NCBI GenBank assembly: GCA_051047955.1
Contig: JBPGPT010000031.1
Span: 62,001-126,000, forward strand
DNA from: Cystobasidiomycetes sp. EMM_F5
Taxonomy: Eukaryota
DNA length: 64,000 nt
Direction: 5' to 3'
Part shown: positions 13,930-20,080 of the stretch, piece after piece
Position numbering within the stretch: the stretch's first letter is position 1
Layout of the letters: the number at the start of each line of letters is the position of its first letter
Made by a program: the position numbers and the translations under genes
Notes under the pieces: model-generated
Told to the model about the DNA's origin: nothing
Database searches by the model: none
What the model saw: the letters and a program-made list of their open reading frames with translations, nothing else

Positions 13930-15379
13930 ATGACCACGCAAGATGCTCCGGCCACTCGGACGGCCATTGCATCTCATCAGGCTGAGCACCAGGCGCTGTT
14001 GACGCAATTGGGTAATCTCGACTACACGATAGCAGCTAGGGTCACAGCGTCTGAAAGGGTGGAGACGCTACGCAAGGACATCGCGGCAAAGGAGCTCGAA
14101 TTGCAGAAGGTCAAGGACAGGACGAGGAAGGAGTACGACGACTTCCATCGCATCACTAACAGCGTCATATCGAGAGCCGCCGTCAAAATACGTGGACGTG
14201 GTGCACTCGACGCCAGGGTCGTAAAGGAGGAGCAGGAATGGCTCCAGGCGTTGCGCGAGGTGGGCGTAAATGCTAATACATAATCAAAGGCTGACTCTGT
14301 CTGGCCGTTATCAAGGAGCATGCTGCAAAAGACGCGTTGTTGACGCTGCAGAATGAGCTCGCCGAAGCGGAGACTCTCGTGCTCGACCTGACAGCCCTCG
14401 CAAACACTCACAAGCAAACGCAACAAAGGCTCAACTCGATTTATGAGCGCGTGTTTGCCGGACCATCGTCTGGCTTTCCCGAAGAGGACCATGCAGAATC
14501 CGAAGTCTACGCCGTAGAGAAGGCTTACAAGGATATGTGTGCTGCTCGCTCGCTTATATTCATATTTATCTAACAACAGCCCCGCAGAATCAAGCTGTTT
14601 CATTGCTCAGGCGCTCAGCCTCCAGGCCAAGGCGTCAAATAGTTTGCGAGAGGCTCTGGGTTATCTTGAAGGAGTAAGTCTGACAAACTCGTAGCCTTTA
14701 TTGCTTGTTCACATTTCGTATCTGTATCGTTTCACCCTTCATCTGCCTTTTCTAATAACAGACCCTGGACTCGCTCGACACCCCGTTATTCTTTCGCGGC
14801 AATTCGGCAATAGCATTCGAGCAGGAAGCTCTCCAACTAGCTGTTGATCGTGTTTCACGCGCGAAAGCATTCTACACATCGGCCGTGTCGTCAGACAGCG
14901 AGCTCACTCCCCTCGGGAGCCTTGGAATTCCCGACATCGACAGTATTGCCCAAGCCTATTATACAGCCAGGATGCACTACTATGGAGAAATGGATGTAGA
15001 TCTACACCTCGTGCCCAGAGTCCAAAAAGCAACTGCACAGATACGGCAGGTGCACGAAACGATCCGGAAACAGATCCGTGCAAGCGAACAGAGGCATAAG
15101 GCGGCCGAGAAGCAAACTCCGGCTTTGCATCTAAAACTCCGTCGCGCGAGACTGCAACTGGATTCGGTACGGAGGTCAATCATCATAGAGTCTTCTGCAA
15201 TTCAGACGGAAGAGCCGGAATCGTTTGTTGGGGATGAAGCGATGGTTACTCAACCGCAATCGCATAATCCGTATGCGCAGTTCCTTGTCAGCAGGGCGGC
15301 GACACTGGACGTCCCTGCTGAGGAACTCCCGAAGTATTTTCCGCGGAGTCAAAACTACAGTGATTTGGAAGTTTCCTAG
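13930..15379 (+). CDS. Fungal coiled-coil hypothetical protein, multi-exon
   Basis: Consecutive coding exons with GT-AG introns; KEEQEWLQAL and IYERVFAGPSSGFPEEDHAE motifs; heptad-like pattern. Confidence 0.65.
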
Positions 15380-15796
15380 GAAACTTTGACGTCGAGGACA
15401 ATGGAAGGAGTGGGAGTATGTGGGAGGAGTTGGTTGGAGTGCGCCTAACAGTGGAAGGTGGGATCTGGGTGGTTTAATTTGCAGTGTCAGTCGGAGGCGG
15501 ACGGATGCGGGAGTTTGAGGGTTCTAGAACAGTGTACTATGAGTATCAAGCAACACTGACTGTGCGGTTCTCTCGGATGGGATTTTTCGGCATCGCTTGC
15601 CTGTGCAGTTTTGCCGAGTCACCTTTTTGGCCTTTTTTCACTTTGCAGGTTGGCTTCGTTCCATTCAAAAGTTGCAAGCAGACTTGGATTGATAATCCCG
15701 TTCACAGCACAGCGTGCAGTGCTGCACAGTCAACAACCTAGCTCGTCGTCGCCATATATCCCATACAAGCCGACCATCCACAACCACCGAGTCACA

Positions 15797-15814
15797 ATGC
15801 AGTCCCAACTTTGA
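15797..15814 (+). promoter_or_regulatory. uORF1 (MQSQL*) in the Gcn4/CPC-1 leader
   Basis: cacaATG CAG TCC CAA CTT TGA with A at -3, in a CA-rich leader upstream of a Gcn4-type bZIP gene. Confidence 0.75.
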
Positions 15815-15880
15815 GCACGGAAAACAACCGCAATCCAAGCAGAGTATCGAAGCAACTCCTCTACACCTACTACAACCACC

Positions 15881-16265
15881 ATGCACGTCTCTGGACTCCC
15901 AACCATGGCGTTCCTTCAGCAGCAGCACAGGCAGCGAAAGGCATTCAATCCTCAAACACCTCAACCACAACAACCGCGCACAAACGCACGAGCGCGCCGT
16001 CTGTTTCAGACTCTAGATGTGAGTGGCAGCTGTGACGCTCATCCCCCGTCCACTTGCCTCTCGGGCGATGATTTATCGTCGTCGTCGTCGTCGTTAGACC
16101 CATCTACCCTAACCTCTCCCTCTTTGTCTACCCTTGCTGAACGTGATTGCCTTTGCTCTCCTCTTGTCCTGCTCACTCCTTCCTACTCACCCCGCTACAA
16201 CTTGCGCCGCCCTCGTCGTGAATCCACAGTCCCCGCCATAGATTATACTACCGTTCAACCCATAA
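15881..16265 (+). promoter_or_regulatory. uORF2 of Gcn4/CPC-1, split by a predicted intron (16019-16241)
   Basis: ATG 15881 (second in-frame ATG 15905); ...ARARRLFQTLD, GTGAGT donor at 16019, pyrimidine-rich intron, acceptor AG at 16240-41, then IILPFNP* (TAA 16263-65). Confidence 0.6.
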
Positions 16266-16642
16266 ACGAGGGTTTAGCACACAATCTATCGGCGACATCG
16301 GAACATTTATCCTCGGATACATCACCACATCAATCACAAAAGGTCTCGCAGAATAGCGACTTTGTCCTAGCAGACCATATTTCAGGTACAGGTACAGCTT
16401 CAGCTCAGCAGACGCCTGGACCACACAAACCTCAACAGGGCAGTCTCTCTACTGCTTCCAGTACAAACACGTCACAGCTATCCGCTTCCGACGACTTTGC
16501 ACTCTTTGTCCTCGAACAACACCTCATTCACCAATCTATCGCTCCTCTAGACGGTACATCGGTAAAACAGGGCATACCAAACAGCACTACTACTAGATTT
16601 ATCCCGCTCAACGACACGACGGCAGCGCCGACATCTACAAAC

Positions 16643-18064
16643 ATGGCATTTTCGTTGTCGTCGTCTGCTCCTCGTACCCCTACCGATGGTGACTATACCC
16701 TTCTTTCGTCGGAAGATTGCGGGTTGTCATTCCGTGGACGGGGCAAGGATTCCAACGATATATGTGAGTTGCAATATGTCTCCTCTACCGACACTGCATC
16801 ACCGCAACGGCAGTCGCGACGTGCCTGTCTGTCGGAAGAGTTTGCCGAAGACGACTTTGTCGACTACTCGTCATGCTCATTGTCGAGTGTGTCACTCGAA
16901 GATGAGTATGTCGACTACTCGTCGTGCTCATTGTCGAGTGTATCAATTACAGAACTTGGTCTGGATGATACTGACTCTGCTTTGACGCCCTCCTTCTCAT
17001 CCATCTCCGATGACGTGTCGTATACACATCACACAGCTGCCATGCTCAAAGACCTCGATACCTTTGGCTTGCCTGCAACCGGCATCATGGTAGATGATCT
17101 TGTAGTCAAGAACAACCCCGCAATGCTTTCCTACACCGACTCTCTGTCGTTCGGCGTACCGACGAGCGCCTTCAATGGCGGCACGGCAATGTCAAACGTG
17201 TTCAAGTCCTTCTTTGCGCCAGGCGTGACGACTTCGCCGACTTTTGAAGACGATCTGCCACCCATTGATACACCAGCTCTAGAACCAGACAATGATGTCG
17301 ACGTCATGTCTCAGCAGACTTCTCCGCTCTGGGGAGGTATCACACCAGCTGACGTGTCGTACGATAATTGGGCACTCTTCTCGAATGAGGGACGGGCAAT
17401 GCATATTCCTGCGCCTTCAATGTCGTCGGGCATTGATGTCGCTGCATCGTTGTCGACCCTGCCTTCCCATACTGTCAGTCCACGAGAACTGCACCTTCCC
17501 CTCGCTACTCCGTTTGATAACGCGAAGGTGCAAGGCGACGTGCAAGTACCCCAGTCAGCACTGTTCAACAACAAGCGGACGTTTGCAGAGTCGGAGGATG
17601 TATCAACCGTCGAAGTTGGCAGAAACAAGCGATCAAGGCTCTCTCCGGTACCTGCCAGTGAGGGGCAATCGTCAGCTCCCCGATTCACTGGTACCCGCAA
17701 GACTGCCATTCCACTCCTCGACGAGAATGCCCCACTTCAAAAGCGAGTCTACAAAGGACCACCTTCCAAGACGTCAAAGCGTGCCGTTCCAGCCGCAGCA
17801 GCTAGAAAGGTAGCAGCACTACAAGCTGTAGCGGAAGAGAAGGGTATCGATACATCCGAGGCAATCGAGGATACGATTCAGAAACGCCGCTTGCACAATA
17901 CTCTTGCAGCGAGGAGGAGCAGACACAGAAAGGCAGAACACCTTGAAGAGCTCGAGTCGACTATTGCGCAGCTCAGAGAGGCGCTGGCGAACGCGGAGAA
18001 TGAGAAGGACGTCTGGATTGCCCGTGCGATGGCAGCGGGATGGACAGAGAGGCCTGTGGCGTAA
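16643..18064 (+). CDS. GCN4: Gcn4/CPC-1 (cross-pathway control) bZIP transcription factor; main AUG inferred
   Basis: C-terminal KRRLHNTLAARRSRHRKAEHLEELESTIAQL; upstream PSKTSKRAVP; acidic-aromatic activation motifs (DNWALF); uORF-bearing leader. Confidence 0.88.
   Translation: MAFSLSSSAPRTPTDGDYTLLSSEDCGLSFRGRGKDSNDICELQYVSSTDTASPQRQSRRACLSEEFAEDDFVDYSSCSLSSVSLEDEYVDYSSCSLSSVSITELGLDDTDSALTPSFSSISDDVSYTHHTAAMLKDLDTFGLPATGIMVDDLVVKNNPAMLSYTDSLSFGVPTSAFNGGTAMSNVFKSFFAPGVTTSPTFEDDLPPIDTPALEPDNDVDVMSQQTSPLWGGITPADVSYDNWALFSNEGRAMHIPAPSMSSGIDVAASLSTLPSHTVSPRELHLPLATPFDNAKVQGDVQVPQSALFNNKRTFAESEDVSTVEVGRNKRSRLSPVPASEGQSSAPRFTGTRKTAIPLLDENAPLQKRVYKGPPSKTSKRAVPAAAARKVAALQAVAEEKGIDTSEAIEDTIQKRRLHNTLAARRSRHRKAEHLEELESTIAQLREALANAENEKDVWIARAMAAGWTERPVA
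16847..16948 (+). repeat. 51-nt imperfect tandem duplication (EDDFVDYSSCSLSSVSL / EDEYVDYSSCSLSSVSI)
   Basis: Two adjacent near-identical units starting at 16847 and 16898. Confidence 0.9.
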
Positions 18065-18938
18065 ATGGCAGGAGTAGGGGACGCAGCGGTCGGAGAATAC
18101 TGGTATAGCGAGTGGGCGGAGCAGGATGAGCGCGAGCGGAACGGAGACGGTAGGACTGAAGCCCCCGAGGCGACGGACAAGACAGAAAAAAGACCTTATA
18201 AGCAATGGTCAAAACACATCGAGAGGGAAGTGACGTTGGCGAAATTCACAAGCAACCCACTTTCGAAATACCACAAAAGCACAAAAAAAGGATTGGATGA
18301 ATTTGGAACGACCTCTTCGTTACTTTCTACTACATGACGCCGTTCCTGTCCATGCAGTGACGGAATTGGATTTACTTTCTAGATTATAGTTGGATTACAA
18401 GTGCGATGACCCGGGAACTACCTGCGAGCCTGATGAGCGTTGTATGAGCTTGCTGTGCAAAAACTTGTACAGGGTATAGCTTGGTGGGATTGCGCTTGAT
18501 ATTTGCTTTTCTGGCTCTGCCTTAACGTACTCTGTCCATCACTCGTAGAGCGGGCATATGACGGGTGCTTACACAGGCTTTTGACTTGCAGTTGCAGGAA
18601 CATGCAACTCTTACGATGACAGGCTCATTGTCCACGTCCGTGACCGTGGGGTCTACTGTGCCTGCAACTTCTCCATGTCTTAACCTAATATTGACCTTAT
18701 CCGTGGTCAATTTGCTTGCCGGACGGTGTCATCATAGGAGTGTGACATGAAGGTTGTAACACGTTGCATTCGCTGGCTCAAATGCCAGCTTGCGTATGGC
18801 TTTACGCATTAGAGTGTCGTCGGGATTATGAAGCTTGGCTGTTGTGCTGCCGCGTGGTTCACATGCCATCCATGACACGTCCACCAGGCCCGCGTTCAAT
18901 ACCACCGCGCTGAGAGTGTCGGGGACAATCAGATTTAG

Positions 18939-20080
18939 CTATAAACTACTCCACAGCAGCGGATTACGTACATTTCCAGGCACAGCTGGATTTGGGCACC
19001 CGCTCGCCAGATGACCAGGTTGCGTGCACTTGAAGCAGACGACACCAGCCATGAAAGCAGGCTGTCCCCCTCCGTCGCCATGCATACCCATTCGCGGGCC
19101 GCCTCGCATACCTTGGCGATTATACGCATCTGCGCCAGGATTGTTCTGATTGCCTGGTCTTGTGTATGCATCGTCGGATGTCATGGAAGTATATGATTGT
19201 ACTGTATTGTTGTGATTGTTGTGACTTGGCCAGTCCCGGTCTCGATTCCGATAAACATCTCCAGGTGCTTGTTTGGCTTGCTCTGATTGTCGAGCCATTC
19301 GCTCCACATCGGCCTCAAGGAACGGTGGGCTAGCGTAGTAGTATTCGTTGTGAGTATTGTACACTTTGTTAGCAGATTCACACGTTTAGCAATTATTCAA
19401 TTACGTACTGGGCTAATTTGCACGCTGGTCCATCGGGACAGAATCCGACCAAGTATAGAGGGCAAGCTACTCGTTGAATATGCTTGTTGGGGCAGTCAGG
19501 ACCTGGAAGCATTCACAGGCATGTCAGGGCGGCCAAGGTCAACGGATACAAAGCTGAGTCAGCAACGGTTTCTTGAATCAGTCAATTATAGCATACCAGC
19601 TCTGCAAAAGCCAGCGGTATAGCTTCGACATTCTGGTCGTCTTTGATGCGGTGTGATGTGAAGATACATGCATTCGTCTCCAGACGAACAGAAGCCGTGT
19701 TTTGTAAAGAAGAAGCATTCGGGCATTTTACGCAGATTGTACTCGTGCAAGAAGTCGCACTCGTTGCCCTTGATACACAGGCCACGCAGCCAGTGCTTGC
19801 ACACCGTTCTAGAGTGCAGCGTCGTTCCCACAGGCGTAGGCGTGTAGTTTAGCGGCGATGGATTAGTATGCCTTTTTGGACACGCTGAGCCCAGCGGGCA
19901 GCCCGTAGGCGACAGGAAAGGGCGGCATATCTGCCAGTCGGCGTCGAGTTTGAGCGGAGGCTGCACTTCGCTCTTGATGCGGGCTTCCAGGAGCATTTCA
20001 GTGTGCCGGTAGTCTGGAAACGCGACAATATCGTTTGCAGCCCACGACGGCAGCTTGGACGGCCCAGCGACGGCGGCCAT
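18939..20080 (-). CDS. YTH1: Cleavage/polyadenylation factor Yth1/CPSF30 (CCCH fingers plus CCHC zinc knuckle), multi-exon
   Basis: VCKHWLRGLCIKGNECDFLHEYNLRKMPEC; C-terminal CFKCTQPGHLASGC. Confidence 0.95.

Follow-up and report, generated by a model that had tools for sequence, protein, structure and literature searches.

A candidate leader intron in a basidiomycete cpc-1/GCN4 homolog that may decide whether a uORF ends or is fused to the transcription factor

Can an intron in an mRNA leader decide whether an upstream open reading frame (uORF) with an inhibitory role ends or becomes the N-terminus of the protein encoded downstream? The question is raised by the cpc-1/GCN4 homolog of Cystobasidiomycetes sp. 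EMM_F5, found in a 64,000-nucleotide (nt) stretch of contig JBPGPT010000031.1 (hereafter the window; coordinates are positions in it). GCN4 and cpc-1 are textbook cases of translational control, ATF4 being a further factor controlled by uORF reinitiation, and the scheme established for GCN4 and cpc-1 is capture of reinitiating ribosomes by an inhibitory uORF in fed cells and bypass of that uORF in starved cells. A first-pass annotation of the window had proposed that an intron decides between a stop in the second uORF and its fusion to the transcription factor. This is partly borne out by a related species (contig L002 and protein P0059), and the frame is open in further relatives; for EMM_F5 itself we infer splicing, retention, translation of the long form and its regulation. 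On balance we lean, by a little, toward a real leader intron with two used outcomes, retention yielding a long isoform in which uORF2 is fused to CPC-1.

Identity of the gene and layout of its leader

Judged by homology, the gene is the single basidiomycete cpc-1/GCN4 homolog of EMM_F5: the genome has one match to the CPC-1 basic leucine zipper (bZIP) protein, whose basic region and zipper (17879..18010, + strand) match Pfam bZIP_1 and GCN4 structures. The bZIP_1 match at the C-terminus has E=1.6e-4, with Pfam bZIP matches below the curated cut-offs, and GCN4 chains are the best matches to the clade profile among solved structures (E 1.4e-5). With the single sequence, GCN4 is the best bZIP match (E 0.0014), behind one chance match to a ryanodine-receptor chimera. 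The closest homologs include P0065, a protein named as from Cyphobasidiales (Cystobasidiomycetes); Agaricomycete bZIP proteins are more distant. The ESM Atlas gave generic bZIP clusters only. When 50% representatives were searched with a profile, the clade grew by just two proteins, P0068 and P0069, which say nothing about the intron.

All leader features are on the + strand. uORF1 (MQSQL*, 6 codons including the stop) lies at 15797..15814. uORF2 has two in-frame AUGs, at 15881 (accaccATGC) and 15905 (ccaaccATGG), both in strong context; on intron retention its exon-1 part (15881..16018, 46 codons) would form the N-terminal end of the long isoform. A GTGAGT donor in phase 0 at 16019 begins the candidate leader intron, for which we prefer the CAG acceptor at 16229 (16019..16229, 211 nt, 3n+1). 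The intron is stop-free for 70 codons in the uORF2/main frame, and the one frame shared by 15881 and 15905 meets no stop until that of CPC-1 at 18062-18064, 727 codons in all. The first-pass annotation had uORF1, both AUGs, the donor with its phase and the open frame to 18064 right. Of acceptors it had given 16229 and 16241 (TAG 16239..16241; 223 nt, 3n+1), which are both present, and missed a third, the TAG at 16095..16097; this gives a 79-nt intron, also 3n+1 and within the 45-79 nt peak of the genome's introns, and each of the three may be the one used. Any of the three splices leaves uORF2 with 49-53 codons, ending ...LD-SPP* (16229) or ...LD-IILPFNP* (16241), as the annotation had read them, or ...LD-THLP* (16097), and leaves no stop in the main frame between 15742 and the main AUG at 16643..16645 (acaaacATGG), whose M..SSS(A)P(R/Q)TP register is as in relatives. 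The exon-2 leader (16230..16642) is thus open in the main frame, where frame scan and alignments place the known N-terminal extension of cpc-1 (section 6 of PMC5487733, as excerpted).

The same junction in a close relative

A metagenome scan with C-terminal patterns (80 loci kept of 198 confirmed) gave one close contig that reaches the leader, L002; the prokaryote genomes and viral contigs that were scanned contain no relative. In L002 a uORF1 of 3 codons shares its frame with uORF2, which has 48 codons and two AUGs; the contig has an open main frame of 263 codons and lacks intron 2 of the window gene (see below). Its main frame retrieved P0059, in which the gene of this species is read without splicing: P0059 residues 1-44 equal L002 282-413 (frame 3, 100%), residues 106-255 equal L002 413-862 (frame 2, 98%), and the intervening 61 residues, stop-free, are missing from L002. 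This pattern of matches shows a phase-0, 3n+1 intron inside uORF2 in the L002/P0059 species; splicing ends uORF2 there and the unspliced frame fuses uORF2 to CPC-1. Because intron 2 holds a stop in that species, the full fusion requires that intron 1 be kept and intron 2 removed.

The window resembles L002 in several respects. The distance from the uORF2 AUG to the junction is 132 nt in L002 and 138 nt in the window, that from the junction to the main AUG 377 and 413 nt; both junctions are in phase 0, and splicing in both puts the uORFs at +1 to the main frame. L002/P0059, P0003 and P0004 have a double AUG too, with a spacing of 8-10 codons. The DNA of exon 1 looked alike by eye in the window and L002, a likeness ruled out by shuffles, which align as well in 438 of 1000 cases; since the alignment is within chance, the case for an intron in the window is built on position, phase and donor rather than on sequence likeness, which weakens it.

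Does the frame through the intron stay open in other relatives? P0002, P0003, P0004, P0059 and P0065 are available as proteins only, and their read-through stretches are open for 25, 69, 52, 61 and 24 codons, respectively, as against 70 in the window. The intron peptides of P0003, P0004 and P0059 align with one another (p 0.0005, 0.009, 0.047), as blocks in one frame despite unequal spacing. All three occurrences of the motif RRS[RK]R in 66,567 homolog residues fall in these peptides; Y[NPS]LR is found five times, four of them in the read-through stretch (window protein, P0002, P0007, P0065). In the window the YNLR codons (16196..16207) lie inside a basic patch, RYNLRRPRRES, of the read-through frame. 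The acceptor register YNLR-x7-T|V is common to the window and P0065, and acceptor 16229 is favored because of this agreement. Further downstream, alignment of the exon-2 leader is significant to P0002 (p=0.0055) and to P0004 (p=0.033) but not to P0003, P0059 or P0065. Related fungi appear to keep the read-through option under selection. As to the orthologous basidiomycete loci, where the first-pass annotation had suggested looking for the same intron, it is found in the same place in L002/P0059, with the read-through also open in P0002, P0003, P0004 and P0065. In-frame stops in orthologous introns, which the annotation had named as a sign against its proposal, occur in none of the visible cases, a kind of negative that protein-only data cannot reveal.

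A leader intron in agaric-type loci

Among the 80 kept loci, 72 share the motif at the main AUG (55 clusters at 94%). We class these 72 as agaric-type, that is, as Agaricomycetes, because their peptides are like those of named proteins, P0012 among them. Their leader has a long GT-AG intron of 254-372 nt, where mapped, placed differently from that of the window, upstream of uORF1. In the pair L005 and L006, with 99.9% identity and intron 2 missing from each, the sole difference is a 360-nt GT-AG leader intron (L005:86-445). The spliced type is represented by 14 contigs, with the GT-AG junction mapped in 12 (L025 is unclear and L058 has no partner), and 14 others are unspliced across the donor and yet without intron 2, as judged from peptides and gaps. 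Evidence for the intron also comes from L004, L016, L018, L019, L021, L027, L030, L053, L067, L081 and others. Five further contigs start inside the leader intron, perhaps at alternative transcription starts.

An in-frame AUG, with no stop between, lies 528-897 nt 5' of the main AUG in 51 of the 52 loci that hold the intron region (37 clusters), 14 spliced and six too-short loci being set aside. In a related group of 15, from which L005 is excluded, every locus has the acceptor in one and the same phase to this AUG. In the 13 loci with a donor the AUG-to-acceptor distance is 221, 224, 230 or 233 nt, always 2 mod 3, and the donor-to-AUG distance (128-153 nt) takes every residue mod 3. Nonsynonymous relative to synonymous differences (pN/pS, pairwise and uncorrected for relatedness) give 0.52 for the intron part, 0.38 for the exon extension and 0.33 where the main ORF begins. 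These patterns are good evidence that part of the spliceable agaric leader intron codes for an AUG-started extension of CPC-1. The arrangement differs from that of the window and therefore illustrates the principle without being the window's own element; as a version of the finding it may be more general and easier to test.

Two side observations concern these introns. A stretch of about 55 nt in the agaric intron (L005 ~290-345 and its orthologs) is nearly invariant at the DNA level, beyond coding need as it seems, and an RNA element is possible there. TCGTC-rich tracts lie 5' of acceptor 16229 and of agaric acceptors alike, and in the window a (TCG)6 run (16077-16094) directly precedes acceptor 16097.

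Intron 2 and the length of the product

A second intron, of 273 nt (16764..17036, +; 3n and stop-free), probably lies within the main coding sequence. Its removal gives ...KDSNDI-SAMLKDLDTF...; the same junction is spliced in L002 (ENDI-SQYLNDFF) and in P0010, as compared with P0004 and P0006-9. Alternative acceptors are at 16813 and 16952. With intron 2 removed, the main form of EMM_F5 CPC-1 would have 382 amino acids (aa) and the long form 636 or 628 aa. The first-pass annotation had overlooked this intron and read through it: the frame is indeed open for 727 codons, and a 727-aa product is rejected because intron 2 is likely removed, the likely long product being one of 636 aa.

Introns that are both 3n and stop-free are usually depleted. 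Intron 2 of the window is stop-free with P=0.013 by shuffle, and it is often 3n and stop-free elsewhere: 71 of the 72 agaric-type loci keep the frame from main AUG to bZIP open, as do ~33 of 34 among those that still hold intron 2, its presence being scored by eye. L075 and the P0059 species have it closed. Within intron 2 of the window, at ~16845-16945, a stretch of ~40 nt is duplicated (DDFVDYSSCSLSSVS / DEYVDYSSCSLSSVS in frame).

Chance, constitutive splicing and other explanations

How unusual is the stop-free read in the window itself? The first-pass annotation had called it notable, and this depends on the yardstick: the 211-nt stretch, being A-poor, is stop-free in 20% of dinucleotide shuffles (P=0.20), and at the stop rate of the genome's short introns (79, called by motif in 192 kb of the EMM_F5 genome) its chance of being stop-free is 1%. 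For the 79-nt version the probability is 0.76, and 30 of the 79 called introns are themselves stop-free in phase 0. Openness of the main frame in exon 1 alone has P=0.145. The 137 codons of the exon-2 leader are open in 1.2% of shuffles, openness that is itself a published cpc-1 feature. On the window sequence alone, openness exceeds chance only modestly.

An intron that is always spliced, in an ordinary cpc-1 gene of the type described by Ivanov et al. (2017), would account for these figures, the openness arising incidentally from an A-poor intron, from common ancestry and from bias in sampling. We regard this as unlikely, though it survives best among the alternatives: all three 3n+1 splices give the published layout (PMC5487733, section 6, as excerpted), and the clade's sole RNA-like contig is spliced. 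It sits badly with a frame kept open over six stretches of very unequal length, in three of which peptide blocks align, and with the coding constraint in the agaric-type intron.

Several further points weigh, like the shuffle result and the chance-level exon-1 alignment, against the two-outcome reading that we prefer. No RNA spans the EMM_F5 leader intron; a comparison of two small-share RNA runs with 15300-18500 gave four short pieces, none over 16019-16241 and none with a joint, which is evidence neither way. The window's intron peptide is only weakly like those of the relatives (best p 0.023 and 0.043 of five uncorrected tests, the others 0.40-0.95), and the Y[NPS]LR motif may partly reflect branch-point sequence. 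The intron boundaries of P0002 and P0065 were drawn without DNA, and about ten clade proteins start downstream of the intron and so cannot be scored. Gene callers and length filters favor open-frame proteins, an ascertainment bias; L002 and P0065 were chosen without regard to length, and P0059 with a closed intron would fall below the length filter. Within the yeast clade the RNA form seen is the spliced one only (one contig, L002). Retention is seen in agaric-type loci only, both forms being contigs without levels, and the unspliced contigs may be unfinished pre-mRNA. The exception to the 51 of 52 is L005, whose AUG is 1 nt out of frame and which is the only unspliced partner from the same species. 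Finally, lying upstream of uORF1, the agaric leader intron may not be homologous to that of the window.

Could the EMM_F5 intron instead be little or never spliced? The AUGs at 15881 and 15905 would then be the main start, and 16643 the start of a short form reached past skipped starts. The strong contexts of both AUGs fit this, as does the named gene model P0065, which includes the read-through. Typical introns of the genome (45-79 nt) have RCTGAC 15-24 nt 5' of the acceptor; none of the acceptors 16097, 16229 and 16241 has a branch site of this type at that distance, a canonical RCTRAC is likewise wanting there for 16229, and 211 nt is long for this genome. A consensus donor that coincides in position and phase with a relative's spliced junction argues the other way, and the gene would be left without an inhibitory uORF, unlike the basidiomycete leaders in the excerpted parts of PMC5487733; we judge such a gene improbable. 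Least probable is an in-frame (3n) acceptor further 3' (e.g. 16270, 16342, 16351), which would fuse uORF2 in both forms and change only the N-terminal length: such acceptors exist, and by inference a Gln codon of P0002 near the inferred branch region could be one, but three nearer YAGs, all 3n+1, come first and the relative's junction shifts the frame.

Relation to known systems

Much of the spliced layout is known. Ivanov et al. (2017; PMC5487733, as excerpted here) describe, for 32 basidiomycete cpc-1 mRNAs, a uORF1 of 4-7 codons, a longer uORF in good context, and a main frame open from uORF1 to the main AUG; an in-frame stop is never closer than 77 nt upstream of uORF1, and in-frame near-cognate codons lie 5' of the long uORF, the first of them 5' of uORF1. 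The starts they consider are non-AUG only; frameshifting is also suggested, and Pezizomycotina cpc-1 leaders are included. The spliced EMM_F5 form is like these leaders in uORF1, the long uORF and the open main frame. Because the layouts agree, the ~400-nt open leader, which the first-pass annotation had thought notable, is already known as the near-cognate extension, and its novelty was overstated. EMM_F5 departs from these leaders in its nearest main-frame stop (15739-41), which is 55 nt from uORF1 and not at least 77 nt, and may precede the transcription start. The near-cognate codons ATA 15754 and 15763 are in the main frame 5' of uORF1, possibly untranscribed; ACG at 15817..15819 (+), with A at -3 and G at +4, is in optimal context and needs a 3n+1 splice to be in the main frame, and its use may be presumed from the same source. 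The long EMM_F5 form further differs in being AUG-started and dependent on a kept leader intron.

GCN4 of Saccharomyces cerevisiae, cpc-1 of Neurospora crassa and cpcA of Aspergillus fumigatus share with EMM_F5 a GCN4-like bZIP and a uORF1 followed by an inhibitory uORF; the excerpted accounts describe no leader intron for them, and their inhibitory uORF cannot become the N-terminus of the protein (PMC5487733, PMC8494424, PMC12810187). The GCN4 candidate of Cryptococcus neoformans, CNAG_06246, is a basidiomycete bZIP with two ribosome-occupied uORFs (PMC7049704, PMC8494424, PMC9604717, in part), and is likened to the EMM_F5 gene by this description only. In the main text of PMC5487733, as covered, 'intron' occurs once (in the methods) and 'splic' never; in the covered text of PMC8494424 none of the strings intron, splic and isoform appears. 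A leader intron of cpc-1/GCN4 is not reported in the passages returned from the Creative Commons-licensed PMC and bioRxiv literature, subscription papers lying outside this scope, and an intron-dependent AUG fusion is absent from the passages of PMC5487733, PMC7049704, PMC8494424, PMC9604717, PMC2926611, PMC12810187 and PMC7498311. What appears to be new is the intron-dependent AUG fusion; uORF control and the open spliced leader are known.

In other regulators too the choice of mRNA isoform or start sets the output. HAC1/XBP1 output is determined by isoforms made by non-spliceosomal splicing, and C/EBPbeta (LAP/LIP) output by start choice. The brlA alpha/beta isoforms of Aspergillus nidulans arise from alternative transcription starts, with a uORF gained or lost (PMC12810187, excerpt), and an isoform switch adds or removes a uORF in Metarhizium Mr-OPY2 (PMC9604717, excerpt). 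Unlike brlA and HAC1/XBP1, EMM_F5 would have a spliceosomal intron inside the uORF that changes the uORF frame relative to the main ORF.

Proposed mechanism

The spliced mRNA would carry uORF1, then an inhibitory uORF2, the main AUG 16643, and a main frame that is available to near-cognate starts as far back as 15742. In fed cells ribosomes would reinitiate after uORF1 and be captured by uORF2; in starvation, with eIF2 ternary complex low, they would bypass uORF2 and reach AUG 16643, and 382-aa CPC-1 would rise. In the intron-kept mRNA both uORF2 AUGs are predicted to be in frame with CPC-1. Reinitiation at 15881/15905 in fed cells would then give long CPC-1 (636/628 aa) and not a dead-end peptide, so that retention would supply the factor without Gcn2 signaling. 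This long form would carry the basic patch coded by the intron, with uORF control bypassed or inverted; in starved cells ribosomes on the intron-kept mRNA would have to pass two small AUGs inside the intron (16017, 16068) to reach 16643. Retention would also remove the uORF2 stop, which could trigger nonsense-mediated decay.

A broader scheme is put forward tentatively, and we doubt it more than we believe it. Across Basidiomycota, cpc-1 would have a long, condition-regulated leader intron whose retention provides an AUG for a long isoform escaping Gcn2/uORF control. In the yeast clade uORF2 would be the N-terminus and the sign of control flipped, with the long form a product of fed cells; the AUG of agarics would lie inside the intron. 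Both introns end ~410-430 nt 5' of the main AUG and may represent a single ancestral switch.

Other features of the locus

A TATA-like CATATAT lies at 15753..15759 (+), with a putative role as promoter. GAGTCA, which is like a Gcn4 site, occurs at 15346, 15616 and 15789, the last just 5' of uORF1; it is not enriched (three in 15300-16700, compared with ~1 per kb across the window). No RNA fold better than shuffles was found in 15990-16270 (z -0.63). Downstream, on the opposite strand, is a gene (19586-20080, -) with CCCH zinc-finger repeats, whose product presumably resembles the polyadenylation factor Yth1/CPSF4.

Implications

In filamentous fungi the published extra layer of control is non-AUG initiation (PMC5487733, as excerpted). 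If the two-outcome reading is true, a conserved leader intron that turns an inhibitory uORF into a protein start would be a third layer of control. It would tie splicing to general amino-acid control and provide a Gcn2-independent source of the factor, and the long isoform would be either missed by current gene models or taken by them as the sole product.
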